Of a stretch of DNA of 64,000 nt, positions 221-14,166 are shown one piece after another. This DNA comes from Solirubrobacterales bacterium. Lineage in GTDB: Bacteria; Actinomycetota; Thermoleophilia; Solirubrobacterales; Thermoleophilaceae. A program made the position numbers and the translations under genes. Position 1 is the stretch's first letter, and each line of letters begins with the position of its first letter. A model generated the notes under the pieces. That model saw nothing but the letters and a program-made list of their open reading frames with translations, was not told the origin of the DNA and did no database searches. The stretch spans positions 66 through 64,065 of the forward strand of contig JAAYBF010000185.1 in assembly GCA_012718975.1 (NCBI GenBank), written 5' to 3'.

Positions 221-234
221 TGCAATCGTTTGTA
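221..234 (+). promoter_or_regulatory. LacI/GalR-type operator-like box TGCAATCGTTTGTA (site 1 of 4), ending 3 nt before the transketolase-N ATG
   Basis: Near-palindromic 14-mer. It matches 11/12 of the core GCAATCGTTTGC that occurs in the same gene-relative orientation upstream of three other units (11694-11707, 20365-20378, 23133-23146). A TTGACA box lies at 200-205. Confidence 0.55.
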
Positions 235-237
235 GCA

Positions 238-1080
238 ATGTCTCCCGGAGAAACCTCAACACTGCCCGAGGCGCCCAGCTCAGCCGAGCTGGCGGCGCTC
301 GCCGTCCAGATCAAGCTCGAGTCCCTCGCGATGGTGTCGATCCAGGGATTCGGCTATCTCGGCCAGGCGCTGTCGGCCGGGGAGACCTTCGCGGTGCTGT
401 TCGGCGAGGAGATCGACCACGAGACGGACCGGTTCGTGCTCTCCCCGGGCCACTACGCGGTCGTCTACTACGCGGCGGCGGCGGCGGTCGGCCTGCTCGA
501 CCGCCACCAGCTCGCCGGCTACGGCCGTGACGGCGCGCTGCTGGAGGCGATCAGCACCGAGCGCACCCCGGGCGTCGACCTGACCTGCGGCTCGCTCGGC
601 CAGGGCCTCTCCGGCGCGGTCGGCTACGCGCTCGCGGCGCGGCTGGCCGGTGGCGGCCGCCGCACGTTCGCGTTCCTCAGCGACGGCGAGATGGAGGAGG
701 GCCAGGTCTGGGAGGCGGCGATGTTCGCCGCCCACCACGGCCTCGGCGACCTCGTCGTCGCGCTCGACGCGAACGGCTCGCAGGTCGACGGGCCGATCAC
801 CGACGTCACGACGATCGAGCCGATCGCGGAGAAGTGGGCGGCGTTCGGCTGGCACGTCGAGGAGGTCGACGGCCACGACATCGGCGCGCTGCGGCGCGCC
901 TTCGCAGCGTGCCGCGCCGACGACCGCCCGTCGGTCGTGGTCGCGCGCACCGACATCCTCGGCCGCCTGCGCTCGATCCCCGACACCGCGGACGGGCACT
1001 TCCTCAAGCTCGACGTCGAGCTCGAGGCGGCGATCCGGGCCGAGCTGGAAGGGATCGGGAGGACCGCGAGCCATGCTTGA
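238..1080 (+). CDS. Transketolase, N-terminal (TPP-binding) subunit of a split transketolase
   Basis: 280-aa ORF with GFGYLGQALSAGE, SPGHYAVVYYAA and LSDGEMEEGQVWEA...ALDANG (TPP/metal-binding loop), typical of two-subunit transketolases. It overlaps the next gene by 8 nt. Confidence 0.9.
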   Translation: MSPGETSTLPEAPSSAELAALAVQIKLESLAMVSIQGFGYLGQALSAGETFAVLFGEEIDHETDRFVLSPGHYAVVYYAAAAAVGLLDRHQLAGYGRDGALLEAISTERTPGVDLTCGSLGQGLSGAVGYALAARLAGGGRRTFAFLSDGEMEEGQVWEAAMFAAHHGLGDLVVALDANGSQVDGPITDVTTIEPIAEKWAAFGWHVEEVDGHDIGALRRAFAACRADDRPSVVVARTDILGRLRSIPDTADGHFLKLDVELEAAIRAELEGIGRTASHA

Positions 1081-2074
1081 ACCGCCCTACGACATCGTCC
1101 TCAAGCCGTACGGGCAGGCGCTCGTCGATCTCGCGCAGGAGCGCGAGGACGTCGTCTGCCTCGGCGCGGACCTCACCCGCCAGACCGAGACCGACCTCTT
1201 CCGCGACACGATCCCGGAGCGGTTCTTCAACGTCGGGATGGCGGAGGCGAACGCGATCGGGATCGCCGGCGGCCTGGCGCGCGCCGGCCACACGGTCTTC
1301 TTCAACACCTTCGGGGTCTTCGCGACCCGGCGCTGCCTGGACCAGATCGCGATGGCGGTCGCCTACCCGGCGCTGAACGTGAAGGTGATCGGCTTCATGC
1401 CGGGCCTGTCGAGCCCGGGCGGGCCGAGCCACCAGGCGATCGAGGACGTCGCGCTGATGCGCGCGCTGCCGAGCATGACGGTCGTCGACGTCGCCGACGC
1501 GACCGAGACCCGCCAGGCCGTCAGGGCGATCGCCGAGATCGACGGACCGGTCTACATGCGCCTCAAGCGCGGCGAGATCCCGGTGATCTTCGATGACGAC
1601 CACGAGCTGTCGCTCGACCGCGCGCAGGTGCTGGTCGAGGGCGCGGAGCTGACGATCGTCGCCTCCGGGATGCTGCTGGCGGCGGCGCTGTCGGCGGCCC
1701 GCCTGCTGGGCGAGCACGGCGTCGACGCCGGCGTGGTCAACGTGCCGGTGATCAAGCCGTTGGACGCAGCGACGGTGGTCGGCGCGTGCGCCGGCACGCG
1801 CGCGGTCGTGACCGCGGAGAACCACTCGGTGGTCGGCGGGCTGGGCTCGGCGGTCGCCGAGGCGCTCGCCGAGGCGGGCGCCGGCGTCCCGCTGCGCCGC
1901 GTCGGGATCGAGGACCGCTTCGCGGAGTCCGGCAGCCGGCCCTACCTCTTCAGCCGCTACGGGCTGTCGGTCCAGCGGATCGTCGAGCGGGCCTGGGAGG
2001 CCCTCGGCCGCGACGACTCCCCGCCGGCCGCCGCCGACGTCGTCGCCGACGAGGGCACCTACGCGCCGGTCTAG
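1073..2074 (+). CDS. Transketolase, C-terminal (pyrimidine-binding/C-terminal domain) subunit
   Basis: In-frame ATG at 1073 with GGGAGGA about 9 nt upstream. The product starts MLEPPYDIVLKPYGQALVDLA and contains FFNVGMAEANAIGIAGGLA. The track ORF 650..2074 is an upstream over-extension of this frame. Confidence 0.9.
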   Translation: MLEPPYDIVLKPYGQALVDLAQEREDVVCLGADLTRQTETDLFRDTIPERFFNVGMAEANAIGIAGGLARAGHTVFFNTFGVFATRRCLDQIAMAVAYPALNVKVIGFMPGLSSPGGPSHQAIEDVALMRALPSMTVVDVADATETRQAVRAIAEIDGPVYMRLKRGEIPVIFDDDHELSLDRAQVLVEGAELTIVASGMLLAAALSAARLLGEHGVDAGVVNVPVIKPLDAATVVGACAGTRAVVTAENHSVVGGLGSAVAEALAEAGAGVPLRRVGIEDRFAESGSRPYLFSRYGLSVQRIVERAWEALGRDDSPPAAADVVADEGTYAPV

Positions 2075-2107
2075 CCAACGCTTCACCACCACCAGGGAGA
2101 GAACCAG

Positions 2108-3493
2108 ATGAGCACCTATACCCCGAGCACGCCGATCGCCTCCCCCGGGGCGGTCATGGGCGTGGACTGGGAGAGCCGCGTCGACTTCCAGCGCCTGCGC
2201 GAGTACCGCCTGGCGCGCACGAAGGAGATGCTGGAGCAGTCGGAGTGCGGCGCGCTGCTGCTCTTCGACATGAACAACATCCGCTACACGACGGCGGCGC
2301 ACATCGGCAACTGGGCGCGCGACAAGTTCTTCCGCCGGGTGCTGATCACACGCGACGAGGATCCGATCCTCTGGGACATCGGCTCCGCGGCCCGCCAGCA
2401 CCAGATGCACAACCCGTGGCTGCCGGAGGAGAGCTGGCGGCCGGGGCTGTCGAGCTGGCGCGGCTCGATCGACGAGAACGTCGGCGTCGAGGTCGCCAAC
2501 GCGAAGAAGATCGCCGACCTGCTGCGCGAGCGCGGGCTGGAGAACGAGCCGGTCGGCATCGACGTCGGCGAGATCCCGACGATCAAGGCGCTCGAGGCCG
2601 AGGGCCTGACCGTCGTCGACGGCCAGACGACGATGCAGCGGGCGCGGATGATCAAGTCGCCCGACGAGGTCGTGCTGCTCGAGACGGCGGCCGCGATGGT
2701 CGACGCCGCCTACGACGAGCTGTACCGGGCGATGCGCCCGGGCGTGCGCGAGAACGACATCGTGGCGCTGGTCAGCAAGCTGCTGATCGAGCTGGGCTCG
2801 GAGGAGATCGAGGCGATCAACGCGATCTCCGGCGAGCGCTGCAGCCCGCACCCGCACGTCTTCTCGGACCGCATCCTGCGCCCGGGCGACATGGCCTACT
2901 ACGACATCATCCACTCGTTCATGGGCTACCGGACGTGCTACTACCGCACGCTCAACGTGGGTGGCTCGACCGAGTCCCAGCGCGACGCCTACCACCGCGC
3001 GCGCTACTACCTCGACGCGGCGATCGCCGAGATCAAGCCGGGCGCGACCTCGGCCGACGTGGTCGCGAAGTTCCCGAAGGCCGAGGAGTTCGGCTTCGGC
3101 TCCGAGGAGGAGGCGTTCGGCCTCCAGTACGTGCACGGCATCGGCCTCGGCAACTGGGAGCGTCCGCTGATGAGCCGCTACCACTCGCTCGAGCATCCGA
3201 TCGAGATCGAGGAGGGGATGGTCTTCGCGATCGAGACCTACTGGCCCGCCTCCGACGGCGTCTCGGCCGCCCGGATCGAGGAGGAGATCCACGTGACCGC
3301 CGACGGTCCGCGGATCCTCACCCGGTTCCCGGCCGACGAGCTGCTGGTCACCGGCACGCGCTACTGGAACGGCCACTCCTTCGCGGACGGCGCCAACCAC
3401 CTGCGCGAGCCCGACGCCCCGACCACCCCGGCGGTCCTGCCGGCCAGCAACGGGCAGGCGCCCGTCCTGCCGACGGCCGACCGCCCGCGCTGA
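2108..3493 (+). CDS. M24-family pita-bread hydrolase (creatinase/prolidase/DddP-like), paralogue 1
   Basis: 461 aa with an N-terminal creatinase-like region (LLLFDMNNIRYTT) and a C-terminal M24 core (GDMAYYDIIHSFMGYRTCYYRT, VHGIGLG, FAIETY, RIEEEIHVT). RBS GGGAGAG precedes the ATG. It is clearly paralogous to 5531..6868. Confidence 0.85.
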   Translation: MSTYTPSTPIASPGAVMGVDWESRVDFQRLREYRLARTKEMLEQSECGALLLFDMNNIRYTTAAHIGNWARDKFFRRVLITRDEDPILWDIGSAARQHQMHNPWLPEESWRPGLSSWRGSIDENVGVEVANAKKIADLLRERGLENEPVGIDVGEIPTIKALEAEGLTVVDGQTTMQRARMIKSPDEVVLLETAAAMVDAAYDELYRAMRPGVRENDIVALVSKLLIELGSEEIEAINAISGERCSPHPHVFSDRILRPGDMAYYDIIHSFMGYRTCYYRTLNVGGSTESQRDAYHRARYYLDAAIAEIKPGATSADVVAKFPKAEEFGFGSEEEAFGLQYVHGIGLGNWERPLMSRYHSLEHPIEIEEGMVFAIETYWPASDGVSAARIEEEIHVTADGPRILTRFPADELLVTGTRYWNGHSFADGANHLREPDAPTTPAVLPASNGQAPVLPTADRPR

Positions 3494-3498
3494 TCGCG

Positions 3499-4008
3499 AT
3501 GGCCGCGACCGCCCCGGGCCCGCTCGACGAGGCCGACTTCCGGGAGGTCATGGCCGCCGTGTGCACGCCTGTCACCGTCGTCACGACGCTCGACGGTGAC
3601 AGGCCGCACGGCACGACGGTGAGCGCGTTCGGCTCGCTGTCGCTGCGCCCGCCGATGGTCACGGTCGCGCTCGACCGCGACTCCGACCTGCTGGCGCTGG
3701 TGCGCAGGACGCGCCGGATCGGCGTCAACGTGCTCTCCCACGGCCAGGAGGAGCTGGCGCTGGCGTTCGCGCGCAAGGGCGGGGACAAGTTCGACGGCGT
3801 CGCGTGGGGGGTCGACCACGACCTCCCACGCATCGACGGCGTCGGCGGCTGGCTGGCCTGCGACGTCGCCGAGATCGTGCCCGGCGGCGACCATTCGATC
3901 GTCCTCGGCGGCGTCGTCGCCGCGCACGCCCAGAGCGAGCCGCCGCTGGTCTACCAGCGGCGCCTGTTCGGCACCCACTCGGCGTTCCTGGTCGCTCCCG
4001 GCGAGTAG
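3499..4008 (+). CDS. Flavin reductase-like domain protein (NAD(P)H:flavin oxidoreductase component)
   Basis: The ATG at 3499 is in frame with track ORF 1786..4008. The sequence FREVMAAVCTPVTVVTT...GTTVSAFGSLSLRPPMVTVAL...IVLGGVV is typical of the HpaC/NtaB-type flavin reductase fold. Confidence 0.85.
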   Translation: MAATAPGPLDEADFREVMAAVCTPVTVVTTLDGDRPHGTTVSAFGSLSLRPPMVTVALDRDSDLLALVRRTRRIGVNVLSHGQEELALAFARKGGDKFDGVAWGVDHDLPRIDGVGGWLACDVAEIVPGGDHSIVLGGVVAAHAQSEPPLVYQRRLFGTHSAFLVAPGE

Positions 4009-4087
4009 CGGCGGCCGGAGGGCGGCGGGAGCGACCGCCCGCCCCCGCCGCCACGCCGCGCCCCAGGAGAAGTCGGGCGCGGCGCTC

Positions 4088-4110
4088 CGCGATCCCGCTA
4101 GGGGATCGCG
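4088..4110. terminator. Hairpin CGCGATCCC-gctag-GGGATCGCG between convergent operons (overlaps the stop of the ALDH gene)
   Basis: Perfect 9-bp inverted repeat with a 5-nt loop, read directly. It has no T-tract, so terminator function is inferred only from its position. Confidence 0.35.
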
Positions 4111-5534
4111 AAGTACTTGGACTCGGTGTAGTCGAGCAGGCCCTCGTGGCCGCCCTCGCGACCGAGCCCGCTCTGCTTGACGCCGCCGAACGGGGCGGCC
4201 GGGTCCGACACCAGACCGCGGTTGACGGCGATCATGCCGGCCTCGAGCCGCTCGCCGACGCGCAGCGCGCGGTCGAGGTCGCGCGAGTAGACGTAGCTGA
4301 CCAGGCCGTACTCGGTGTCGTTGGCGGCGGCGATCGCCTCGTCCTCGGAGTCGAAGGCGACGACCGGCGCCACGGGTCCGAAGATCTCCTCGCCGAGCAG
4401 CCGCGCGCCGGCGGGGACGCCGGCGAGCACCGTCGGGGCGTAGAAGTGGCCGGCGCGGTCGAGCGCCGCGCCGCCGCAGAGCACGCGCGCGCCGCGGCCG
4501 GTGGCGTCGTCGACGAGCTCGCCGACCGACTCGACGGCCGCCGCGTTGACGAGCGGCCCGACGGCCGCGCCGTCGAGGCCGGGGCCGACGTCGAGGGCGC
4601 CCATCCGCGCGGCGAGCCGCTCGGCGAACTCCTCGGCGACCGGCGCCTCGACGTAGAAGCGGTTGGCGGCGGTGCAGGCCTCGCCGATGTTGCGCATCTT
4701 GGCGACCATCGCCCCGTCGACGGCGGCGTCGAGGTCGGCGTCGGCGAAGACGAGGAACGGCGCGTTGCCGCCCAGCTCCATCGACGTGTTGACGACGCGG
4801 TCGGCGGCGGCGCGCAGCAGCAGGCGGCCGATCTCGGTGGAACCGGTGAACGACAGCTTGCGCACCGCGTCGTGGCCGAGCAGCGCGGCGGCGACGTCGC
4901 CGGAGCGGCGGCTCGGGACGACGTTGACGACACCGTCGGGAACGCCGGCCTCGGCGAGGACGTCGGCGACCAGCAGCGCGGTCAGCGGCGTCTCGGACGC
5001 CGGCTTGAGCACGACCGTGCAGCCGGCGGCGAGGGCCGGGCCGATCTTGCGCGTCGCCATCGCCGCGGGGAAGTTCCACGGCGTGATCAGCAGGCAGACC
5101 CCGACCGGCTGGTGGACGACCAGCATCCGGTTGGCGCCGCTCGGCGCGGTGCCGAAGCTGCCGAGGTTGCGGACCGCCTCCTCGGCGTACCAGCGGAAGA
5201 ACTCGGCGGCGTAGGCGGTCTCGCCCTCGGCGTCGGCGCGCGGCTTGCCGTTCTCGCGCACGATCAGCTCGGCGATCTCGCCGGCGCGGGCGGTCATCGT
5301 CTCGAAGGCCGCGCGCAGGATCTCCGACCGCTCGCGCGGGGCGCGGCCCGCCCAGTCGGCGGCGGCGGCCGCGGCCGCGTCGGCGGCGGCGAGCGCGTCC
5401 TGCACGGTGCCGTTGGCGACCTCGGCGATCGTCTCCTCGCTGGCGGGGTCGGCGACCGCGAAGCTGCCGCCGTCGGAGGCGTCGACGGTCCGCCCGCCGA
5501 TCCGCAGCCCGCCGGCGGGCACGGCGGCGCTCAC
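4098..5534 (-). CDS. NAD(P)-dependent aldehyde dehydrogenase, succinate-semialdehyde dehydrogenase (GabD)-like
   Basis: GTG at 5534 overlaps the upstream stop (GTGA). ALDH motifs are present: ITPWNFP, FTGSTEIG, MELGGNAP, GEACTAANRFYV and EEIFGPV. The track ORF 4098..6692 over-extends into the upstream gene. Confidence 0.88.
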   Translation of the reverse strand: MSAAVPAGGLRIGGRTVDASDGGSFAVADPASEETIAEVANGTVQDALAAADAAAAAAADWAGRAPRERSEILRAAFETMTARAGEIAELIVRENGKPRADAEGETAYAAEFFRWYAEEAVRNLGSFGTAPSGANRMLVVHQPVGVCLLITPWNFPAAMATRKIGPALAAGCTVVLKPASETPLTALLVADVLAEAGVPDGVVNVVPSRRSGDVAAALLGHDAVRKLSFTGSTEIGRLLLRAAADRVVNTSMELGGNAPFLVFADADLDAAVDGAMVAKMRNIGEACTAANRFYVEAPVAEEFAERLAARMGALDVGPGLDGAAVGPLVNAAAVESVGELVDDATGRGARVLCGGAALDRAGHFYAPTVLAGVPAGARLLGEEIFGPVAPVVAFDSEDEAIAAANDTEYGLVSYVYSRDLDRALRVGERLEAGMIAVNRGLVSDPAAPFGGVKQSGLGREGGHEGLLDYTESKYFAIP

Positions 5535-6868
5535 CGGACCACCCCGTCGGGCGCGATCGGCGCGCCGTCGTCGCCGCGCGGGCTGTTGCGGTGCGACTCG
5601 ATCTCGCGGGTGGTGTCCATCGGCCCGTCGGCGGTCAGGAAGTGGCGCGAGCCGGCGACCATCAGGTCCTCGGCGGGGAAGCGCGAGATCACCTCGCAGC
5701 CGTCGGCGGTCACGACCAGCTCCTCCTCGATGCGGGCGGCCTGCCAGCCGTCCGACGCGGGCCAGAACGTCTCCAGGGCGAAGACCATCCCCTCCTCGAT
5801 CGGCTCGGGATTGTCGAGCGACACCAGCCGCGAGATGATCGGCTTCTCCCAGATCGAGAGGCCGAGCCCGTGGCCGAACTGCAGCGCGAAGGCGGCCTCC
5901 TCGTTGGGGAAGCCGAACTCCTCGGCGCGCGGCCAGACCGACACGACGTCGGCGGTGCTGACGCCGGGCTTGATCAGGTCGATCGCGGCGTCGAGGTAGT
6001 AGCGGCAGCGCTTGTAGGCGTCGACGAGGCCGCGCGAGGCGCTGCCGATCGCGAATGTGCGGTAGTAGCAGGTGCGGTAGCCGAGGTAGGAGTGCAGGAT
6101 GTCGAAGTAGGCCGGGTCGCCGGGCCGCAGCGCGCGGTCGGTGAAGACGTGCGGGTGCGGGTTGGCGCGCTCGCCGGAGATCGCGTTGACGCCCTCGACG
6201 TGCTCGGAGCCCATGTCGTAGAGCGACTTGGAGACCAGCCCGACGCACTCGTTCTCGCGCATGCCGGGGCGCAGCGCGCGGTAGAGGTCGTCGTAGGCGG
6301 CGTCGACCATCATCGCGGCGGTGTCGAGCAGCGTGATCTCGTCGCGCGTCTTGATCACGCGCGCGTCCTGCATCAGCTGCTGGCCGTCGGCGACCTCGAG
6401 GCCGGCCCGCTGGAGGGCGAACATCACGCTCGGCTCGACGACGTCGACGCCGACCGGGCTGTCGAGCAGGCCCTGCTCGGCGAGCACCGCGTGGACCTTG
6501 GCGGCGACGTCCTCGGCGCGTCCGGCCGACGGCGGCATCGCGCCGCGCATCGTCGAGATGCCGGCCGGGCTGCGGCCGTCCAGCCACGGGCAGTGGAGGT
6601 CGTGGTGGCGGGCCGCCGAGCCGAAGTCCCAGACGATCGGCTCGCCGCCGCGCGGCAGCAGGCAGAAGCGCGCGAGCTTGTCGATCGCCCACGTCCCGAT
6701 GTGGGTCGCGGTGATGTAGCGGATGTTGTTCATGTCGAAGCAGAGCAGGGCGCCCATGTCGGACGCCTCCAGCATCTGCCGCGCGCGGGCGAGCCGCTCG
6801 GCGCGGAGCCGCTCCATGTCGGCGCGCTGCTCCCAGTCGACGGCCTGCAGGCCGTAGGTGGCGCTCAT
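5531..6868 (-). CDS. M24-family pita-bread hydrolase, paralogue 2
   Basis: 445 aa, collinear with 2108..3493: LLCFDMNNIRYIT, PGDPAYFDILHSYLGYRTCYYRT, GHGLGLS, FALETF, RIEEELVVT. Confidence 0.85.
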   Translation of the reverse strand: MSATYGLQAVDWEQRADMERLRAERLARARQMLEASDMGALLCFDMNNIRYITATHIGTWAIDKLARFCLLPRGGEPIVWDFGSAARHHDLHCPWLDGRSPAGISTMRGAMPPSAGRAEDVAAKVHAVLAEQGLLDSPVGVDVVEPSVMFALQRAGLEVADGQQLMQDARVIKTRDEITLLDTAAMMVDAAYDDLYRALRPGMRENECVGLVSKSLYDMGSEHVEGVNAISGERANPHPHVFTDRALRPGDPAYFDILHSYLGYRTCYYRTFAIGSASRGLVDAYKRCRYYLDAAIDLIKPGVSTADVVSVWPRAEEFGFPNEEAAFALQFGHGLGLSIWEKPIISRLVSLDNPEPIEEGMVFALETFWPASDGWQAARIEEELVVTADGCEVISRFPAEDLMVAGSRHFLTADGPMDTTREIESHRNSPRGDDGAPIAPDGVVR

Positions 6869-6887
6869 CGTGCTCCTTCCGGTCCAG

Positions 6888-7868
6888 TCACGCGCGCGCG
6901 GGGGCCTTTACCCGCGCGCGGATCTCGTCAGCGAGGCGCTCGGCGCTCGGCAGGAAGTCGTCCTCGAGCGTCGGGCTGTAGGGAATCGGCAGCTCGCCGC
7001 TGGCGATCACCCAGCTGTCGTCGATGTCCTCGAGGCCGCGCTCGGCGACGGCGCCGAGCAGGCCGCGCGCCCAGCCGCCGAGCTCGGGCCCCTCGTCGTA
7101 CATCACGACGCGGTTGGTCTTGGCGACCGACTCGAGCACCGTCCGCTCGTCGATGGGGCGGAGCGTGCGCAGGTCGATCACCTCGGCCTCGATCCCGTCG
7201 CCGGCGAGCGTCTCGGCGGCGGCGAGCGCGTCGTGGACGCCGCGCATCGCGGCGACGATCGTGATGTCGGAGCCCTCGCGGACGACGTTGGCCTCGCCGA
7301 TCGGCACGGTGCCGTCGCCCTCGGGGCCCGAGATCGAGTAGAGCCGCTTGTGCTCGAGCACGACAACCGGGTTGTCATCCCGGATCGCGGACTTCAGCAG
7401 GCCCTTGGCGTCGGCCGGGGTCGACGGCGCGACGATCTTGATGCCGGGCACGCCGAGCAGCCACGGCGTCGGGGTCTGGGAGTGGATCGCGCCGAAGCGG
7501 CCGCCGGCGCCGACCGCGCAGCGCACGGTCAGCGGCACCGGGGCCTGCTCGTTCGAGATGTACCAGAACTTCGCCGCCTGGTTGACGAGGCTGTCCATGG
7601 CGAGGATCAGGAAGTCGCCGAACATCACCTCGAAGACGGGCCGCTTGCCGACGACGGCGCTGCCGAACGCGGCGCCGGCGAGCGCCAGCTCGGAGATCGG
7701 GGTGTCGAAGACCCGGCCGGGGCCGAAGCGCTCGTAGAGGCCGGGGGTGACGGCGAACACCCCGCCGGCGGCGGCCACGTCCTCGCCGAAGAACAGGACG
7801 CGCTCGTCGCGCTCCAGCTCCTCCTCGAGCGCGGCGCAGATCGCCTTGCGGAAGGTCGTGTCGCTCAT
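6888..7868 (-). CDS. 2-oxoacid (pyruvate/acetoin-type) dehydrogenase E1 component, beta subunit
   Basis: The product starts MSDTTFRKAICAALEEELERDERVLFFGEDV and contains FDTPISELALAGAAFG and IKIVAPSTPADAKGLL. The ATG at 7868 overlaps the E1-alpha stop (ATGA). Confidence 0.9.
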   Translation of the reverse strand: MSDTTFRKAICAALEEELERDERVLFFGEDVAAAGGVFAVTPGLYERFGPGRVFDTPISELALAGAAFGSAVVGKRPVFEVMFGDFLILAMDSLVNQAAKFWYISNEQAPVPLTVRCAVGAGGRFGAIHSQTPTPWLLGVPGIKIVAPSTPADAKGLLKSAIRDDNPVVVLEHKRLYSISGPEGDGTVPIGEANVVREGSDITIVAAMRGVHDALAAAETLAGDGIEAEVIDLRTLRPIDERTVLESVAKTNRVVMYDEGPELGGWARGLLGAVAERGLEDIDDSWVIASGELPIPYSPTLEDDFLPSAERLADEIRARVKAPARA

Positions 7869-8854
7869 GGCGCGTACTCCGTGGCACGGTCGACGGCAGG
7901 GTCGGGGAACGGCGCCGCCAGCGCCCGCTCGACGGCTGCGGTCAGCTCGCCGCCGACCTCGGCGTCGATCGCGTCGGCGCGCTCGTCGTCGGCGAGCGTC
8001 GCGCGCAGCTGGTCGATCGGGTCGCGCGCCAGCCACGCCTCGACCTCCTCCGGCGGCCGGTAGCGACCGGCGTCGGACTTCGAGTGGCCGAGGTGGCGGT
8101 AGGTGAGCGCCTCGATGAACTGCGGTCCCTCCCCCGCCCGCATCCGCGCGACGGCGGCCCGCGCGGCGGCGGCGACGACCTCCCAGCGGTTGCCGTCGAC
8201 GCGCGCGGCGGGAATGTCGAAGACGCGCGCGCGGCCGGCGATGTCGGCGCCGGCGGTCGACTGCGCGAGCGGCGTGAACTCGCCGTAGAGGTTGTTCTCG
8301 CAGACGAACAGGACCGGCAGCTCGAGCACCTTGGCGAAGTTCAGGCACTCGTGGAAGTAGGCCTGGTTGGTGGCGCCGTCGCCGAAGAAGGCGACGGCCA
8401 CGCGGTCGCCGCCGCGGCAGCCGAGCGCGGCCCCGGTGGCGGCGGCGATGCTCCCGCCGACGATCCCGAAGCAGCCGACCAGGCCGTGGTCGAGGTCGAC
8501 GATGTTCATCGAGCCGGCGCGGCCGCCGCAGGTGCCGGTGCGCCGGCCGAGCAGCTCGGCGGCGAGCGCCTCGGGGTCGCTGCCCTGCGCGAGCGCGGCG
8601 CCGTGGCCGCGGTAGGTCGCGGCGACCCAGTCGCCGGCCTCGAGCGCGGAGCAGACGCCGGCCGAGACGGCCTCCTGGCCGATGTAGAGGTGGACGGTGC
8701 CGTGGATCTCGCCGCGCAGGAACAGCCGCTGCATCTCCTCCTCGAAGCGGCGCAGCAGCAGCATCGTGCGCAGGCCGCCGGCGAGCTCGTCGGCGGTCGG
8801 CTGCCAGTCGCCGGCGACGGCGTCGACGGTGGTCGCGGTCTCGACCGCGCTCAT
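7865..8854 (-). CDS. 2-oxoacid dehydrogenase E1 component, alpha subunit (TPP-binding)
   Basis: Contains LLLRRFEEEMQRLFLRGEIHGTVHLYIGQEA and the TPP motif FFGDGATNQ...CENNLYG. The ATG at 8854 overlaps the upstream stop. Confidence 0.9.
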   Translation of the reverse strand: MSAVETATTVDAVAGDWQPTADELAGGLRTMLLLRRFEEEMQRLFLRGEIHGTVHLYIGQEAVSAGVCSALEAGDWVAATYRGHGAALAQGSDPEALAAELLGRRTGTCGGRAGSMNIVDLDHGLVGCFGIVGGSIAAATGAALGCRGGDRVAVAFFGDGATNQAYFHECLNFAKVLELPVLFVCENNLYGEFTPLAQSTAGADIAGRARVFDIPAARVDGNRWEVVAAAARAAVARMRAGEGPQFIEALTYRHLGHSKSDAGRYRPPEEVEAWLARDPIDQLRATLADDERADAIDAEVGGELTAAVERALAAPFPDPAVDRATEYAP

Positions 8855-9795
8855 CGGGCGGCCTCCAGCGGCTCGCCGAGCCCGTCGCCGACGCCGGCGT
8901 CCTCGGAGGCGATCTCGTAGCCGGAGGCGCGCGCCTGCATCTCGACCAGCGCCGCGAAGTCGACGTCGTCGTAGCCGAGGCCGACGAGCTGCTGGACCAG
9001 CTCGCGCGTGGCGGCCAGCAACGGCATCGGGACGTCGGTCGCGCGGGCGTTGTCGAGCCCGAGGTCGAGGTCCTTGAGCAGCAGCCGCGGCGTGAAGGTG
9101 ACCGAGAAGTCGAGGTCGACGTAGGCGGGCGTCTTGTAGCGCGTGAAGGTCGAGCCCATGACGCTGTCGTTGAGAAACGCCATCAGGTCGGCGCGCCTGA
9201 CGCCGCCCTTCTCGGCGAGCACGGCGATCTCGGCCAGGCACTGGGAGACCACGCCGAGCATCACGTTGTGGCAGATCTTCACCAGCCGGGCGCGCTCGCC
9301 CTCGCCGACGTAGGTCGCGCTGGCGCCGAGGAGCTCGAGGTAGGGCCGCGCCAGCTCCCAGGCGGCCTCGGGACCGGAGACGCAGATCGTCAGGCCGCCG
9401 GTCTCGGCGACGCGCGGGTTGCCGCTGACCGGCGCGGCGAGCATGTCGACCCCGGCCGCGGCCGCGATCGCGCGCACCTCCGCGCCGCCGTCGGGCGACG
9501 CGGTGGTGTGGTCGACGATCACCCGCGGACGGGCGGCGCCGGAGAGGATCCCGCGCTCGCCGGCGACGACCTCGTGGACGTCGGCGGGACCCATGACCAT
9601 CGTGAAGACGATGTCGCGGTCGGCGAGCTCGCGCGGGGAGTCGACGAGCTCGGCACCGAGCTCGGCGAGCGGCTCGGCCTTCGAGCGCGTGCGGTTGTAG
9701 ACCGCGACGTCGTGGCCGGCGGCGAGCAGGCGGGCGGCCAGCGCCGAGCCCATCCGCCCGGCGCCGATCCAGCCGATCCGGAGCGAGTCGCTCAC
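8851..9795 (-). CDS. NAD(P)-dependent 3-hydroxyisobutyrate/6-phosphogluconate dehydrogenase-family oxidoreductase
   Basis: GTG at 9795 (GTGA overlap). It has the Rossmann motif IGWIGAGRMGSALAARLLAAGHDVAVYNRT and the HIBADH-like central and C-terminal helices. Confidence 0.85.
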   Translation of the reverse strand: MSDSLRIGWIGAGRMGSALAARLLAAGHDVAVYNRTRSKAEPLAELGAELVDSPRELADRDIVFTMVMGPADVHEVVAGERGILSGAARPRVIVDHTTASPDGGAEVRAIAAAAGVDMLAAPVSGNPRVAETGGLTICVSGPEAAWELARPYLELLGASATYVGEGERARLVKICHNVMLGVVSQCLAEIAVLAEKGGVRRADLMAFLNDSVMGSTFTRYKTPAYVDLDFSVTFTPRLLLKDLDLGLDNARATDVPMPLLAATRELVQQLVGLGYDDVDFAALVEMQARASGYEIASEDAGVGDGLGEPLEAAR

Positions 9796-10100
9796 GAGGG
9801 CGCGTCCTCGCCGAGCAGCGAGCGCACCAGCGCCAGCGACGCCTCGGAGCTGCCGGCGCCCTCGACGGTGCCGTAGAGCAGCCGCGCGAGCTGGGACAGC
9901 AGGTACGGGTGGACGCCGATGTCGTAGAGCGCCTTGAAGTCGCGCTCCTCGATCGCCGTGCGCTCCTGCGGCAGCAGCTCGAACTGGTCGAGCACGGCGC
10001 CGGGGTCCTGCTCGAACCGCTGGCGCAGCTCGACGTTCCACTTCATCTGCTGGACGAAGTCGTGCGTCGCCAGCTCGCGGTTGAAGTTCTCGATCGCCAT
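9792..10100 (-). CDS. LigA-type small subunit of a class III extradiol ring-cleavage dioxygenase
   Basis: The product MAIENFNRELATHDFVQQMKWNVELRQRFEQDPGAVLDQFELLPQERTAIEERDFKALYDIGVHPYLL matches the LigA-family pattern. The ATG at 10100 has GGAAGGGGATAGGAAG upstream and sits 19 nt after the ligB-like stop. Confidence 0.8.
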   Translation of the reverse strand: MAIENFNRELATHDFVQQMKWNVELRQRFEQDPGAVLDQFELLPQERTAIEERDFKALYDIGVHPYLLSQLARLLYGTVEGAGSSEASLALVRSLLGEDAPS

Positions 10101-10119
10101 CTTCCTATCCCCTTCCTCG

Positions 10120-10962
10120 TCAGACCGTCCAGCGGACGGCGCCGACGCCACAGCGCCACTCGGGCACCTCGGCGTAGGTCAGGACCTCGCATGGGCGCTC
10201 GCCGATCGAGCCCATCGCGACCAGCCAGGAGAGCAGCTCGGCGGTGCCGCCGATGCCGGCCTCCTCCATCCGCTCGAAGGTCGCCTCGCGCAGCACCTTG
10301 TCGTGGTCGCCCTCGGCGAGCAGGTCGAGGAACCAGCGGTCGAAGTCGCCGTCGATCGCCAGGTAGCGCTTGCCGCCGGGCTCGTGGCTGAGCCCGCCGG
10401 AGCCGAGCACGCCGATCCGCAGGCCGTCGGGCAGGGCGCGCAGCGCCTCGCCGAGCTGCTCGCCGAGCTTGTAGGAGGCGCGCTCGTCCGGCACCGGCGG
10501 CACGGTGCAGTTCTGGATCACCGGCAGGACGGCGACGCCCATGTCCTTGAAGCCGGTGAGCGTGACCGGGACCGAGATGTTGTCGTCGAAGCGCAGCGGC
10601 TCGTCCCAGCGCACGACGTTCGCGCCGGCACCCTGCAGGTGGCCGTAGACGGCCTCGGCGAGGTCGGGCCGGCCGGGCATCGAGTAGTCCTCGACGGCGA
10701 GCCAGGGCTTGAACCAGGTGTCCGGGCCGGAGTGCTCGTCGATCATCCCGAAGACGAAGTCGGGGTAGTCGGTGACCGGGAAGTTCGCCAGGTGGTCGTT
10801 GGCGATGATCACCAGCAGGTCGAGATTGGCGTCGCGGATGTCGCTGCCGACCGTGGCGTAGGCCTCGCGCACGTTGCGCTGACTCTCCTCGTCCGCCTTG
10901 TCGAACCAGCCTGTCAGTCCGGGCGCGTGACTCACCGCCGCGGCGAAGACGATGTCTGCCAT
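10120..10962 (-). CDS. LigB-type catalytic subunit of a class III extradiol ring-cleavage dioxygenase
   Basis: 280 aa containing AAAVSHAPG, IIANDHL and GSGGLSHEPGG, the hallmarks of the LigB/AmnB/PCA-4,5-dioxygenase beta family. RBS GAAAGGA precedes the ATG. Confidence 0.85.
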   Translation of the reverse strand: MADIVFAAAVSHAPGLTGWFDKADEESQRNVREAYATVGSDIRDANLDLLVIIANDHLANFPVTDYPDFVFGMIDEHSGPDTWFKPWLAVEDYSMPGRPDLAEAVYGHLQGAGANVVRWDEPLRFDDNISVPVTLTGFKDMGVAVLPVIQNCTVPPVPDERASYKLGEQLGEALRALPDGLRIGVLGSGGLSHEPGGKRYLAIDGDFDRWFLDLLAEGDHDKVLREATFERMEEAGIGGTAELLSWLVAMGSIGERPCEVLTYAEVPEWRCGVGAVRWTV

Positions 10963-11005
10963 CAGATCGGTCCTTTCACGGGTCTTGGTCGTGGGAACGG
11001 GTTGG

Positions 11006-11680
11006 TCAGCTCGCGGCGGGGGACGCGACGAACGAGACGGGCGCGGCGGGCGGGGGGCCGACCTCGAGCCGCCAGGAGACGAAGTCGCGGAAGGCGGTCA
11101 TGAACGTCTCGACGAGCGCCCGGGTCGGCTCGTCGACGAGCCGACCGTCGCCGTCGAAGCGCTCCCAGGCCTTCTGCACGAAGACCTCGGGGCGCAGCAT
11201 CGGCTGGCTGTCGGTGAAGTGGCAGAGCGCGCGCAGGCCCTGCTGGGCGCGGACGGTCCCCATCAGGCCGGCCGAGGCGCCCATCATCCCGACGGCCTTG
11301 TGGCGCAGCGGGCTCGCGTAGGGGCTCTCGCCCGCGCAGGAGACCCAGTCGAGCGCGTTCTTGAGCACGCCGGGGAGGCCGAAGTTGTACTCGGGGGTTG
11401 CGATCAGCACGCCGTCGGTGCGGTCGATCCGCGCGGCGAGGTCGGCGACCGCGTCGGGGAGCCCCTGCTGGCGGACGTCGTCGTCGAAGGGGGGGATCGC
11501 GCGCAGTCCGTCGTAGCGGTCGAACTCGAGGTCCGCGGGCGCGAGCTCGAGCGCCGTGCGCAGCAGCGCGGCGTTGAAGGAGCCCCTGCGCAGGCTGCCA
11601 CAGATCGCGACGATCGACAGCGCGCGGGACGGCTCGGCGGGCGCTCCGCCGGCCGCCTCGCCGGTTGACTGGTCACCCAT
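11006..11680 (-). CDS. NADPH-dependent FMN reductase family protein
   Basis: ATG at 11680. Contains IVAICGSLRRGSFNAALL...LIATPEYNFGLPGVLKNALDW, typical of the FMN_red family. It is the first gene of the 11680-to-4098 operon. Confidence 0.85.
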   Translation of the reverse strand: MGDQSTGEAAGGAPAEPSRALSIVAICGSLRRGSFNAALLRTALELAPADLEFDRYDGLRAIPPFDDDVRQQGLPDAVADLAARIDRTDGVLIATPEYNFGLPGVLKNALDWVSCAGESPYASPLRHKAVGMMGASAGLMGTVRAQQGLRALCHFTDSQPMLRPEVFVQKAWERFDGDGRLVDEPTRALVETFMTAFRDFVSWRLEVGPPPAAPVSFVASPAAS

Positions 11681-11693
11681 GCGGCGAGTGTAC

Positions 11694-11707
11694 TGCAAAC
11701 GATTGCT
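11694..11707 (-). promoter_or_regulatory. LacI-type operator-like box (site 2), centred in the 40-bp divergent intergenic region
   Basis: TGCAAACGATTGCT; its reverse complement contains GCAATCGTTTGC. It lies 14 nt upstream of the FMN-reductase ATG and 14 nt upstream of the formamidase ATG. Confidence 0.55.
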
Positions 11708-11720
11708 AAGATCCACCGCG

Positions 11721-12662
11721 ATGCCGTCGCCCAGGGTCCACGACCTCCCCGCGACCGACGCGACGACGGTCGTCGGCGTCATCGACGCGGCGACCCCGCC
11801 GGTGCTCGCGATCGAGTCCGGCGACGAGCTGCGGATCGAGACCCGCCACCTCTGGGGCGGCGAGATCGTCGACGGCACCACCGTCGCCGACCTCGTCCGG
11901 ATGCGGGACGCCCACATGGGCGCCGGCGCCCTGGGACCGCACACGATCACCGGCCCGGTCGAGGTGATCGGGGCCCGCCCGGGCGACGCCCTGCACGTCG
12001 AGATGCTCGAGCTGGCCCACGGCCCGCACGGCTACAACCTGATCCTCCCCGGCGCGATCGCCACCGGGGTGCTCGCCGAGCGGCTGCCCGAGCCGTCGAT
12101 GACCCACTACGACCTCACCGGCGGTCGGGTCGAGCTGGCCCCCGGCCTCGACGTCGAGCTGGCGCCGTTCCTCGGCATCCTCGGCGTCGCGCCCGCCGTC
12201 GACGGCCCGCTGACCACCTTCGAGCCCGGCCCGTTCGGCGGCAACATCGACCTGCGCGACCTCGTCGAGGGGACCACGCTGGTGCTGCCCGTCTTCCGGC
12301 CCGGCGCCGGCTTCTACACCGGGGACGCGCACGCGCTCCAGGGCGACGGCGAGGTCGACCAGACCGCGCTCGAGACAACGATGGACGCCCGCCTGCGGCT
12401 GACGCTCGAGCCGGGCGCCGGGATCGAGCTGCCGCGCGCGCTGACCGCCGACCACGTCATCCCGCTCGCCTTCGACCGCGACCTCGACGAGGCCGCCCGC
12501 GCCGCGGTCTCCGAGGCCGTCGACATCATCGCCGCCGCCCGCGGGATCGCCGCCGCCGAGGCCTACCGCCTCTGCTCGATCTGCGTCGACGTCGGCATCA
12601 CCCAGCTCGTCAACGGGGTCAAGGGCGCCCACGCCCGCATCCCCCGCGAGCTGCTGGCGTAG
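11721..12662 (+). CDS. Acetamidase/formamidase (FmdA/AmdA) family amidohydrolase
   Basis: ATG at 11721. Contains HTITGPVEVIGARPGDALHVEMLEL...GGNIDLRDLVEGTTLVLPVFRPGAGFYTGDAHALQGDGEV, characteristic of the family. Confidence 0.85.
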   Translation: MPSPRVHDLPATDATTVVGVIDAATPPVLAIESGDELRIETRHLWGGEIVDGTTVADLVRMRDAHMGAGALGPHTITGPVEVIGARPGDALHVEMLELAHGPHGYNLILPGAIATGVLAERLPEPSMTHYDLTGGRVELAPGLDVELAPFLGILGVAPAVDGPLTTFEPGPFGGNIDLRDLVEGTTLVLPVFRPGAGFYTGDAHALQGDGEVDQTALETTMDARLRLTLEPGAGIELPRALTADHVIPLAFDRDLDEAARAAVSEAVDIIAAARGIAAAEAYRLCSICVDVGITQLVNGVKGAHARIPRELLA

Positions 12663-12754: not shown

Positions 12755-13747
12755 CTAGCCGAGCCGGGCGATCGGGATCTCGCGCTGCTCGGCCGACTCG
12801 AGGTCGACCTCGGGCGTGCCGTAGGCGTGGAAGCTCGCGGGCATCCGCAGCCCCCACGCCTGCCCGTCGCGGCGGTCGGCCTCGGTCCAGGTGACCGTCT
12901 TCCAGTCGGGCTCGAAGATCAGGTAGCCCTGCGTGACCAGCTCGATCCGGTTTCCACCCGGCTCGTAGACGTACATGAAGTACTGGTGGCTGATCTTGTG
13001 CTTGCCGGGTCCGGTCTCGATGAAGATCCCGTTCTCGGCCATGATGTCGGCCGCGCGCAGGACGTCCTCGCGGTTGTCGCAGAGCCAGCCGACGTGGTGG
13101 AGCCGGCCGCGCGCGCCGACCACCGCGTCGAGCGAGACCGCGATCTCGTGCACGATCGGCGAGACGCTGTTCCACGAGCTGATCTCGCGCCCGTCGTCGA
13201 GCACGATGTTCTCGCGCAGCTTGAAGCCGAGCTCGTCGGCCAGGAAGCCGCGGTTGGCGGGCACGTCGTCGGTGAGCACGTGCAGGTGGTCGAGCTTGCG
13301 GATCCCCGCGCCGTGGCTCGGCATCCGCTGCGGCATGTTCTTGTAGTAGGGCTTGAGCTCGGGGTCGGCCTCGTACAGCTCGCGGTCCCAATAAACCTCC
13401 ATCAGGTGCCCGGCCGGCATCCGGAACTGGTAGGCGGGGCCGTGGCCGACGTCGCCCTCGATCCAGCCGATGCCCTGCCCGGTCGCCTCGAGCGCCTTCG
13501 CCCGGCGCTCGAGCGCGTCGGCGCTCATCGCCCGCCAGCCGATGTGGCGGATGCCGGCCTCCGGTGCCGCGGTCAGCTTCAGCGTCGTGAGGTCGTGCTC
13601 GGCCCAGACGCGCAGGTAGACCGAGTCGCCGTCGCGCGCGACCTCGCTCATCCCCATCAGCTCCTTGAAGAACCAGAGGCTCTCCTCGATCTTCGGGGTG
13701 CCCAGCTCGACGTGGCCGAGGTAGGCGATCTCCTGGTGCTCGATCAC
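12755..13747 (-). CDS. Type I (vicinal-oxygen-chelate) extradiol dioxygenase, catechol 2,3-dioxygenase-like
   Basis: GTG at 13747 (GTGA overlap). It has two VOC modules: LGHVELGT..., HIGW, DHLHVLTDDV, HHVGW, GPGKH...YVYEPGGNRIEL. Confidence 0.85.
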   Translation of the reverse strand: MIEHQEIAYLGHVELGTPKIEESLWFFKELMGMSEVARDGDSVYLRVWAEHDLTTLKLTAAPEAGIRHIGWRAMSADALERRAKALEATGQGIGWIEGDVGHGPAYQFRMPAGHLMEVYWDRELYEADPELKPYYKNMPQRMPSHGAGIRKLDHLHVLTDDVPANRGFLADELGFKLRENIVLDDGREISSWNSVSPIVHEIAVSLDAVVGARGRLHHVGWLCDNREDVLRAADIMAENGIFIETGPGKHKISHQYFMYVYEPGGNRIELVTQGYLIFEPDWKTVTWTEADRRDGQAWGLRMPASFHAYGTPEVDLESAEQREIPIARLG

Positions 13748-14166
13748 TTGCCCTCTCCGGCCAGCGCCACGCACTCGACCTCGACGAGCACGCCCTCTCG
13801 CGGCGGCGACGCCTGGACGGTCGTGCGCGCCGGGAACTGCGGGCACTCCTCGAAGAACGCACGGTAGACCGCGTTGAACTTCGGGAAGTTCTCCATGTCC
13901 TTGACGTAGCAGTTGCACTTGACGATCCGGTCCTTGGAGGAGCCGGCCGCCTCGACCACGCGGAGCATGTTCTCCAGCGTGAGCTGGGCCTGCTCCTCGA
14001 AGTCCTCGGTGGCGATCGTGTGCGTCTTGGGGTCGAGCGGTCCCTGGCCCGAGCAGTAGACGAAGCCGTTGGCGACGATCGCCTGCGACAGCGGCGCCTT
14101 GGTGTTGCCGGAGAAGCCGACGAGCGGCGCGTCGTCGGTGCTGACGGCGTTCACTTCCATGGTCAT
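13744..14166 (-). CDS. RidA/YjgF-family enamine/imine deaminase (2-aminomuconate deaminase-like by context)
   Basis: 140 aa containing APLSQAIVANGFVYCSGQGPLDPKT...ARTTVQA...LVEVECVA. ATGA overlap with the upstream gene. Confidence 0.85.
   Translation of the reverse strand: MTMEVNAVSTDDAPLVGFSGNTKAPLSQAIVANGFVYCSGQGPLDPKTHTIATEDFEEQAQLTLENMLRVVEAAGSSKDRIVKCNCYVKDMENFPKFNAVYRAFFEECPQFPARTTVQASPPREGVLVEVECVALAGEGK

Follow-up and report, generated by a model that had tools for sequence, protein, structure and literature searches.

Operons and shared operators

The stretch analysed here (the window) comprises 64,000 nucleotides of contig JAAYBF010000185.1 from the metagenome-assembled genome of an uncultured Solirubrobacterales lineage and opens with two convergent operons. 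The plus-strand operon encodes a split transketolase-like enzyme dependent on thiamine pyrophosphate (TPP), an M24-family protein (M24a) and a flavin reductase. The minus-strand operon encodes a flavin mononucleotide (FMN) reductase-family protein, the extradiol dioxygenase subunits LigB and LigA, a β-hydroxyacid dehydrogenase of the HIBADH family, E1α and E1β subunits resembling those of pyruvate dehydrogenase (PDH), a second M24 protein (M24b) and an aldehyde dehydrogenase (ALDH) resembling succinate-semialdehyde dehydrogenases (SSADH). We propose that both belong to a single LacI-type regulon of four or five transcription units and about 24 genes (222–23145), which would be a lineage-specific assembly of independently conserved modules with a catabolic role; this account, its mechanism included, is given an even chance of being correct. 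Module B consists of the HIBADH-like gene, the PDH-like E1α/β pair, M24b and the SSADH-like ALDH. Module A would be the split transketolase-like enzyme and M24a, working with a flavin monooxygenase (3499–4008 and 20526–21734) and a CUT2-type binding protein, while the FMN-reductase/LigBA unit, a divergent formamidase-like gene and a meta-cleavage operon would be attachments to the regulon.

The G+C content of the window being 72%, genes were called by GC3 log-odds and each was checked against Pfam and NCBIfam. The 12 genes that a sequence-only reading had placed in the two operons are all present where it put them, with strong family matches, and Pfam matches also bear out the formamidase-like (FmdA_AmdA), RidA and ACMSD-like (Amidohydro_2) neighbours that it had linked to them. 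Its description of the minus operon as coupled throughout by 4-nt overlaps holds at four of the seven junctions, the other three being gaps of 43, 19 and 19 nt. One of the overlaps lies between the LigA gene and the HIBADH gene of module B, which are thus translationally coupled.

An 11-mer, GCAATCGTTTG, lying within a 12-bp near-palindrome with a central CG, GCAAWCGWTTGC, is present in exactly four copies in the 64 kb. The expected number, one mismatch being allowed, is 0.19, and no shuffled sequence reached four. Each copy is situated 5–40 nt ahead of the first gene of an operon (Table 1), and none is found elsewhere in the window; because copies sit at all four operon starts, we consider the adjacency of the operons to be regulated and not fortuitous. 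A central CG is typical of LacI-family operators, and the island has the appearance of a LacI-type regulon with putative operators to which binding is predicted.

Gene layout and operators are kept in their entirety in a relative, L083, which was found in two other samples and whose M24b is 93% identical to that of the window. Just upstream of its TK_N gene, a position beyond the start of the window, L083 has a LacI gene whose product is about 50% identical to those of LacI genes near module B in other genomes. The link to the formamidase-like, RidA and ACMSD-like genes is borne out, the same LacI-type operator standing at these operons and the layout being preserved in this relative. A second operator copy lies between the FMN_red and LigB genes of L083 (5821–5832) and is without counterpart in the window.

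Of 76 genome loci, 31, all of actinobacterial type, have the same operator no more than 250 bp upstream of M24b, and 100 copies are present in 2.2 Mb of fetched loci, against about two estimated from base composition; it was not found at the module A loci of other lineages. The simplest reading of this distribution is that the operator is native to module B, which would be the native target of the LacI/operator pair in Thermoleophilia, and that the regulator of module B has captured module A, the LigAB/FMN-reductase unit and the meta-cleavage operon in this lineage. The island would then exemplify how the regulon of one regulator grows by capture of ring-cleavage and lower-pathway operons, and the operator that ties its roughly 24 genes together could be used in a search for the inducer.

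In the regions 203–240 and 11680–11712, operators overlap promoter-like elements, start codons follow 5–16 nt on, and there is no obvious ribosome-binding site; some operator-headed operons may be expressed as leaderless mRNAs.

Table 1. Positions and family assignments of genes, putative operators and other features of the island (bits are given against the NCBIfam cutoff unless stated otherwise)
Feature	Positions	Strand	Matches and remarks
Operator O1	222–233	+	GCAATCGTTTGT; 5 nt before ATG238 of the transketolase operon; TTGACA −35-like hexamer upstream; arrangement kept in L083
TK_N, split transketolase-like TPP enzyme, N-terminal (PP-binding) subunit	238–1080	+	Pfam Transketolase_N 1.4e-30
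TK_C, Pyr + C-terminal subunit	1073–2074	+	Transket_pyr + Transketolase_C; overlaps N subunit by 8 nt
M24a	2108–3493	+	Peptidase_M24 1.4e-31; metal-ligand positions D266/C277/H343/E376/E391
Flavin reductase (HsaB/HpaC-like)	3499–4008	+	Pfam Flavin_Reduct 4.5e-38; best NCBIfam match HsaB, 105 vs 230
GC-rich hairpin region between convergent stop codons	4005–4100		Fold −67.3 kcal/mol, z = −3.55
ALDH, SSADH-like	4098–5534	−	Aldedh 5e-159; SSADH subfamily 539 vs 646
M24b	5531–6868	−	Peptidase_M24; metal-ligand positions D256/C267/H333/E366/E381
E1β, 2-oxoacid/acetoin-dehydrogenase-type	6888–7868	−	Transket_pyr/Transketolase_C; PRK09212 323.5 vs 321
E1α (TPP-binding), PDH-like	7865–8854	−	E1_dh 7.3e-68, 229 bits; TIGR03182 303 vs 394, below equivalog cutoff
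β-Hydroxyacid dehydrogenase (HIBADH family)	8851–9795	−	NAD_binding_2/NAD_binding_11; catalytic Lys kept
LigA, small subunit of class III extradiol dioxygenase	9792–10100	−	Pfam LigA (PF07746) 7.1e-13, 49 bits
LigB, catalytic subunit	10120–10962	−	PF02900 98.4 bits; H12, H57, H193, E242 present
NAD(P)H-dependent FMN reductase-family protein	11006–11680	−	FMN_red 7.1e-35; first gene of minus operon
Operator O2	11695–11706		GCAAACGATTGC; in 40-nt divergent region between, and shared by, FMN-reductase operon and formamidase-like gene; kept in L083
Acetamidase/formamidase-family protein (313 aa)	11721–12662	+	Divergent; FmdA_AmdA 3.8e-33; FmdA equivalog 75 vs 500
Type I extradiol dioxygenase, catechol-2,3-dioxygenase-like (VOC)	12755–13747	−	TIGR03211 315.9 vs 320.2; PDB 9wgj 354 bits
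RidA-family enamine/imine deaminase	13744–14166	−	Pfam, NCBIfam
ACMSD-like Amidohydro_2 decarboxylase	14163–15173	−	Nearest structures ACMSDs, 2e-29
2-Hydroxy/aminomuconic semialdehyde dehydrogenase-like ALDH	15175–16668	−	TIGR03216 578.6 vs 693
4-OT tautomerase	16665–16859	−	Pfam, NCBIfam
FAA_hydrolase-family decarboxylase/hydratase	16859–17638	−	Pfam, NCBIfam
DmpG aldolase	17631–18653	−	Pfam, NCBIfam
DmpF acetaldehyde dehydrogenase	18650–19528	−	Pfam, NCBIfam
2-Oxopent-4-enoate hydratase-like	19525–20346	−	Pfam, NCBIfam
Operator O3	20366–20377		GCAAACGATTGC; upstream of meta-cleavage operon
ACAD-fold oxygenase of two-component flavin monooxygenase (HsaA/XiaF-like)	20526–21734	−	HsaA 265.7 vs 450
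CUT2-type (Peripla_BP_4) solute-binding lipoprotein	21829–23124	−	Called start TTG; a GTG in GVG context about 15 nt further downstream is probably the true one
Operator O4	23134–23145		GCAAACGATTGC; overlaps TTGACA-N17 promoter-like site upstream of binding-protein/monooxygenase operon

Conservation of the modules in other genomes

Relatives of M24b are encoded by at least 583 stretches of the GTDB species-representative genomes. The best 80 were analysed as genome loci, with partners sought within 10 kb; their M24b proteins are 72–77% identical to that of the window and derive mostly from Thermoleophilia and Chloroflexota, together with one Bryobacterales and one Firmicutes-labelled metagenome-assembled genome (MAG). 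E1α/β genes accompany M24b in 56–58 of the 80, a HIBADH-like gene in 56 and a lipoyl E2 gene in 40, the usual order where E2 is present being HIBADH–E1α–E1β–M24b–E2. More than 100 fetched loci from several phyla conserve HIBADH–E1αβ–M24b, mostly with E2. Within 10 kb of M24b, none of the 80 carries a gene for LigB, TK_N/C, FMN_red, the flavin reductase or a further M24 protein of M24a type. Many add a Leu/Ile/Val-type (HAAT) ATP-binding cassette (ABC) transporter, an FrsA-like α/β hydrolase, a third M24 protein, a molybdenum hydroxylase and a CrtI-like flavoprotein; in NCBIfam the last four of these have distant matches only (FrsA, CrtO, glyceraldehyde dehydrogenase), and a nicotine-like pathway for them is a guess. 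Plasmid pGal_E78 of Phaeobacter gallaeciensis DSM 26640 encodes the module B core with E2, LpdA (E3) and an SSADH-like ALDH.

A metagenome scan and three genome contexts yielded 29 M24a-type loci. TK_C is situated directly upstream of M24a in 14 of these, TK_C fragments precede it in three more, and M24a is often followed by a HIBADH-like gene. The operon of Streptomyces sp. NBC_01089 reads acyl-CoA dehydrogenase (ACAD)-like oxygenase, flavin reductase, crotonase, TK_N, TK_C, M24a, Dabb and HIBADH, after which comes DmpFG. Microbacterium sp. LWH7-1.2 possesses a CUT2 ABC system, Dabb, crotonase, TK_N/C–M24a, two RidA genes and the ACAD-like oxygenase, without the flavin reductase. The 42-kb plasmid unnamed5 of Paenarthrobacter ureafaciens SD-1 (NZ_CP101190.1) encodes a fused E1αβ, E2, ACAD-like oxygenase, amidase, RidA, crotonase, HIBADH-like protein, M24 and flavin reductase. 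The ACAD-like oxygenase thus recurs with M24 in all three organisms, along with varying subsets of flavin reductase, crotonase, RidA and the HIBADH-like protein. Elsewhere, ketopantoate-reductase-family genes flank M24a in a Bradyrhizobiaceae MAG, and the M24 gene on a Rhodococcus opacus 1CP plasmid stands isolated among insertion sequences and is uninformative. In L107–L114 and similar actinobacterial module A loci, a family III CoA-transferase gene and a short citrate-synthase-like (citryl-CoA-lyase-like) gene, both assigned to families by eye, come after M24a–HIBADH, which hints that the end product of module A may be a hydroxy-dicarboxylate handled as its CoA ester. The HAAT and CUT2 binding proteins offer no clue to a ligand, their PDB matches being generic Leu/Ile/Val and sugar binders only.

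P. ureafaciens SD-1 is a cultured sulfonamide degrader, and its M24/E1αβ-fusion cluster takes up about half of the plasmid. The paper on the Paenarthrobacter sulfonamide strains does not discuss this cluster (PMC10873849).

Orthologues of LigAB that are 60–69% identical occur in Baekduia, Actinomadura and Pseudonocardia. An isochorismatase-family gene lies beside all three, and other partners vary among metallo-β-lactamase (Lactamase_B), NMT1-type ABC transporter, Amidohydro_2 and 4-OT genes; at none of these loci does M24 or E1 stand beside LigAB. The hydrolases of the isochorismatase and metallo-β-lactamase families and the NMT1-type transporters suggest that this LigAB subfamily may act on an amide-bearing or heterocyclic substrate. 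That the 12 genes form one coherent pathway centred on ring opening by LigAB, as the sequence-only reading had it, does not survive this survey: the parts are separately conserved with different partners, the very pattern which that reading had named as contrary to it, and the modules are kept apart in other genomes.

The M24 proteins

Both M24 proteins carry the pita-bread catalytic domain (PF00557; 110.3 and 117.6 bits, gathering cutoff 23), as first noted, but they are not generic hydrolases. They are DddP-like paralogues, 59% identical, with a non-canonical metal site, and M24a has an orthologue group of its own. Where the canonical M24 ligands are Asp, Asp, His, Glu and Glu, these proteins have Asp, Cys, His, Glu and Glu, a Cys replacing the second Asp. 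All of 120 M24b orthologues have the Cys, which likewise does not vary across an alignment of 30 M24a and M24b sequences, whereas DddP and the peptidases keep Asp at this position.

Over the full two-domain length, M24a and M24b match the dimethylsulfoniopropionate (DMSP) lyase DddP better than any peptidase (E 7e-20, 23% identity), at scores of 130.6 and 118.3 bits that are below the equivalog cutoff of 600 for NCBIfam DddP (NF043017). An AlphaFold (AF2) model of M24b with a mean pLDDT of 80 gave 4rzy, 4s01, 4s00 and 4b28 as its top Foldseek hits, the DddP structures superposing with a TMq of 0.76–0.77 and a root-mean-square deviation of 3.1–3.3 Å over 396 alignment columns (4rzy best, TM 0.77); prolidases, ectoine hydrolase and creatinase follow. 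By sequence and model, the two proteins are best described as neither canonical M24 peptidases nor DddP, and would represent a distinct DddP-like subfamily in which Cys invariably replaces an Asp of the dinuclear metal site and whose nearest relative is a lyase and not a peptidase.

DddP is also resembled in the non-peptidase genomic context. By comparison, the bridging Asp ligand of DddP is the residue changed here, the genes are carried by soil Thermoleophilia, Chloroflexota and actinomycetes, and M24 is paired with a TPP enzyme. A further parallel exists with ectoine degradation (DoeA/EutD with DoeC/Ssd), where an M24 enzyme opens a small nitrogen-containing ring and an SSADH-like ALDH then oxidises a semialdehyde; DoeA is a detectable homologue. 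Here, however, the M24 proteins score only 49–62 against DoeA equivalog cutoffs of 575–613, there is neither a deacetylase (DoeB) nor an aminotransferase (DoeD), their place being taken by TPP enzymes and a HIBADH-like gene.

TPP enzymes and their dehydrogenases

The two transketolase-like subunits score 171.8 and 236.2 bits against NF004559 (cutoff 488). An exact-match protein look-up with TK_N, like one with the Conexibacter protein P0145, had no hit. Alignment with E. coli TktA reveals that the cofactor and catalytic residues H66, D155, N185, H261, E411, H473 and R520 are conserved, whereas the residues for the donor C1-OH (H26Y), the acceptor C2-OH (D469G) and the phosphate (H461F) are changed, and R358 and S385 fall in gaps; this pairwise alignment at low identity carries moderate weight. 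The three changes argue against an ordinary sugar-phosphate transketolase. Split transketolases are known from sugar catabolism, namely the sulfo-transketolase SqwGH and the apulose-4-phosphate transketolase AptAB. With these the window shares the division into N and Pyr+C subunits and, as in Microbacterium, a nearby CUT2 sugar-type binding protein and LacI/GntR regulator; unlike them, the locus has no sugar kinase or isomerase gene, and M24a follows the transketolase genes.

The nearest solved structure to E1α is mitochondrial-type PDH E1α (2e-46), ahead of the branched-chain 2-oxoacid dehydrogenase. Like the acetoin and pyruvate dehydrogenase complexes (AcoABCL, PDH), the pair has PDH-like subunits of the heterotetramer type, and orthologous loci carry an E2 nearest to the PDH acetyltransferases and sometimes LpdA. 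It departs from them in that M24 sits between E1β and E2 in Chloroflexota-type loci, in its constant HIBADH-like and ALDH partners and, in the window, in having no E2. Genes for lipoate synthesis, lipB (octanoyltransferase) adjoining lipA (lipoyl synthase), are present on the plus strand at 54040–55825, 45 kb from the E2-less E1α/β pair.

The structures nearest to the HIBADH-like protein are succinic semialdehyde reductase (3pef), 2-(hydroxymethyl)glutarate dehydrogenase (3cky) and tartronate semialdehyde reductase. An imine reductase identity was ruled out by the presence of the catalytic Lys.

Predicted ring cleavage and oxygenation

LigAB shares with protocatechuate 4,5-dioxygenase a small LigA, a catalytic LigB and the residues H12, H57, H193 and E242, which we take to be the counterparts of H12, H61, H195 and E242 of LigB (1B4U), that is, the iron ligands and the catalytic His. 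Unlike that enzyme, the LigB of the window reaches only 71.5 bits against PRK13372 (cutoff 837), 72 bits against 1b4u_B and 108 against the NCBIfam class III subfamily (cutoff 290). The FMN_red protein encoded ahead of it has no NCBIfam equivalog match.

The oxygenase at 20526–21734, which lies outside the region described in the sequence-only reading, matches XiaF (an indole monooxygenase; 1.4e-71) and HsaA (2.4e-57) among PDB structures. By NCBIfam family, it and the flavin reductase at 3499–4008 are each other's only candidate partner and probably form a two-component ACAD-fold flavin monooxygenase. Such enzymes (HsaAB, XiaF, C2-HpaH) are the best matches of both components, the oxygenase to XiaF/HsaA and the reductase to HsaB; unlike the HsaAB type, both fall below the equivalog cutoffs and are encoded in different operons 16 kb apart.

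By its gene families, the operon at 12755–20346 is a putative meta-cleavage gene set of the aminophenol/3-hydroxyanthranilate type except for its dioxygenase. The meta-cleavage pathways of 2-aminophenol and 3-hydroxyanthranilate are encoded by the amn and nba clusters, and with these the operon shares the joint presence of ACMSD-like, RidA-type, muconic semialdehyde dehydrogenase, 4-OT, 4-oxalocrotonate-decarboxylase-like, hydratase, aldolase and acylating acetaldehyde dehydrogenase genes. It differs in its ring cleaver, which is a type I (VOC) enzyme like catechol 2,3-dioxygenase and not a cupin 3-hydroxyanthranilate dioxygenase (3-HAO) or one of AmnAB type. Nothing relevant was found in the literature on its structural match, 9wgj.

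Proposed catabolic role and alternatives

The operators, synteny statistics, family assignments and active-site residues are observed; the nature of the substrate and every chemical step that follows are inferred. The substrate is plausibly a nitrogen-containing (hetero)aromatic or lactam-type compound; since the meta-cleavage operon is of the aminophenol/3-hydroxyanthranilate type, a nitrogen-containing aromatic would fit. The flavin monooxygenase would hydroxylate this compound and the two extradiol dioxygenases would cleave the ring, with the FMN reductase keeping an auto-oxidisable polyhydroxy substrate or intermediate reduced, presumably much as benzoquinone and nicotine-blue reductases do. 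The Cys-variant M24 enzymes would hydrolyse an amide or lactam, or eliminate a leaving group, to give a hydroxy- or oxo-acid, and RidA and the formamidase-like enzyme would remove nitrogen. The HIBADH-like enzyme and ALDH would interconvert hydroxy acid, semialdehyde and acid; the TPP enzymes may decarboxylate the resulting 2-oxo acid or cleave an α-hydroxyketone, and the meta-cleavage operon would yield pyruvate and acetyl-CoA.

In line with the initial impression, literature searches turned up no pathway that the enzyme set matches. Among the routes considered were the hydroquinone-type, γ-resorcylate, inositol (IolD), apiose/sulfoquinovose transketolase, Rut-like pyrimidine, indole/isatin-to-anthranilate, pantothenate and S-methylmethionine routes; any one of these would account for part of the genes, but none is represented here by its diagnostic gene set.

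Several points weigh against the regulon and its mechanism. No LacI gene was found within the window, the contig ending just upstream, and operators with a central CG are generic to LacI proteins, so that a different paralogue could bind some of the sites. Tblastn searches detected no E2 (lipoyl acyltransferase) gene anywhere in the window. In other genomes the modules are conserved apart, under different regulators (GntR, IclR, XRE-cupin) as well as with different partners, and genes regulated together do not have to form a single linear pathway. No ring-cleaving dioxygenase is present at the Streptomyces module A locus, and the usual company of module B, a Leu/Ile/Val-type ABC transporter and E2 without aromatic-ring enzymes, is more in keeping with an aliphatic amino-acid-like substrate than with an aromatic one.

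This last point leads to the strongest alternative, which we regard as possible if on the whole unlikely: that the modules of Cys-variant M24, TPP enzyme and HIBADH-like protein (with or without ALDH) degrade an aliphatic, zwitterionic, amino-acid-like metabolite, chemically unrelated to the aromatic genes, which merely share a regulator in this lineage. Candidate substrates would be sulfonium or ammonium propionates and butyrates (DMSP, 4-dimethylsulfonio-2-hydroxybutyrate [DMSHB], S-methylmethionine), a homoserine- or ectoine-like compound, and pantothenate or pantoate. M24 would act as a lyase or as a ring or amide hydrolase in the manner of DddP or DoeA, the HIBADH-like enzyme and SSADH-like ALDH would oxidise an ω-hydroxy acid via the semialdehyde, and E1/E2 or the transketolase-like enzyme would decarboxylate a 2-oxo acid. 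Such a scheme accords with the nearest relatives of the M24 proteins (DddP, then prolidases and ectoine hydrolase) and with those of the HIBADH-like protein and ALDH (succinic-semialdehyde reductases and SSADH, respectively), a combination resembling the logic of DoeA with DoeC. It also accords with the Chloroflexota and Phaeobacter loci, in which module B occurs with HAAT transporters and a full E1/E2(/E3) set and without oxygenases, with the ketopantoate-reductase-family genes around M24a in the Bradyrhizobiaceae MAG, with the frequent presence of crotonase, and with the cleavage of DMSP by marine actinobacteria that have no known ddd gene (PMC6309047).

Yet the identity to DddP is low, with scores of 118–131 against 600, and a metal ligand is changed. 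No diagnostic gene, such as an aminotransferase or dimethylmalate dehydrogenase, is present for any of the candidate substrates. In four actinobacterial contexts, moreover, M24 occurs with the ACAD-fold flavin monooxygenase, in three of them with RidA and in two with DmpFG, and in the window the modules share operons and operator with LigAB and the meta-cleavage pathway.

That the combination is without biological meaning, a gene-dense "catabolic shelf" on which unrelated pathways lie together by chance or neutrally, seems improbable when the operons share an operator and LigA is translationally coupled to the module B HIBADH gene. Each module does occur without the others in other genomes, and L083 tolerates an AAA_16 insertion between the two operons; against this stand four identical operators, each placed exactly at the head of an operon and without a further copy in the 64 kb, the retention of layout and operators in L083, and the position of the sole candidate oxygenase for the flavin reductase of the transketolase operon, which is in the fourth operon.

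A housekeeping reading, in which the genes would simply encode pentose-phosphate transketolase, pyruvate dehydrogenase E1 and Xaa-Pro peptidases, draws on the source annotations of the M24 proteins (Xaa-Pro aminopeptidase/dipeptidase) and on an E1β score just above the NCBIfam PDH E1-β subfamily cutoff; it is scarcely credible given transketolase-like subunits far below equivalog cutoffs with three substrate-binding residues changed, an E1α likewise below its PDH equivalog cutoff, the absence of the second metal-ligand Asp from M24a/b in all orthologues examined, and the presence of the genes in regulated catabolic operons with transporters and regulators at more than 100 loci.

Significance of the modules

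Taken as a whole, the island belongs to a familiar general class of catabolic gene clusters, with nothing unusual in its meta-cleavage part. The two paralogous three-gene modules conserved across phyla are another matter. Somewhat short of an even chance is given to the view that modules of TPP enzyme, Cys-variant DddP-like M24 and β-hydroxyacid dehydrogenase constitute an undescribed and very widespread catabolic pathway, in which M24 enzymes with a D-C-H-E-E site and a new activity, that of a lyase or ring/amide hydrolase and not of a peptidase, would feed TPP-dependent C–C cleavage of a metabolite that is common in soil or plants but has gone unrecognised. The chance that the modules carry out new chemistry on some common compound of the environment is substantial. 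Among the GTDB stretches and other matches, M24 relatives span Actinomycetota, Chloroflexota, an Acidobacteriota MAG, Roseobacters and, distantly, haloarchaea. Literature searches returned nothing relevant on clusters of M24 with E1 or transketolase, and no report of the M24(Cys)+TPP+HIBADH modules, the metal-site variant or the expanded LacI regulon. The cultured carriers Streptomyces sp. NBC_01089, Microbacterium sp. LWH7-1.2, P. ureafaciens SD-1 and P. gallaeciensis DSM 26640 make the function accessible to experiment.

Marine isolates of Microbacterium and Agrococcus convert DMSP to dimethyl sulfide without a recognised ddd gene (PMC6309047). Microbacterium has DddP-like M24(Cys) proteins, which are candidates for this ddd-less cleavage, and the still missing actinobacterial DMSP or sulfonium lyase may possibly be a member of this family.

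Other features of the window

The convergent operons are separated by 89 nt. The hairpin region that spans this gap is, from its predicted fold, a possible bidirectional terminator; a consensus scan of the gap found no T-tract terminator. In L083 a gene for an AAA_16 protein of 408 aa (12771–13997) is inserted between the ALDH and flavin reductase genes, exactly in the convergent gap.

A type II toxin–antitoxin pair (Phd/YefM antitoxin and PIN-domain toxin; 26605–27244) separates the catabolic island from the rest of the window. Beyond it, a separate amine-type catabolic cluster (30310–41226) comprises a PotABCD-like ABC transporter, a class III aminotransferase, saccharopine-dehydrogenase-like and alanine-dehydrogenase-like genes, a third ALDH and a PucR-family regulator. 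Two very large open reading frames on the minus strand (927 and 1022 aa; 44033–49881) have a G+C content of 0.67, against 0.72 for the window, and essentially no Pfam match, a sub-threshold InlB B-repeat being the only one; this region may be foreign DNA or a surface-protein locus. According to Rfam and ARAGORN, the sole RNA gene in the window is tRNA-Ala(TGC) at 61123–61195.

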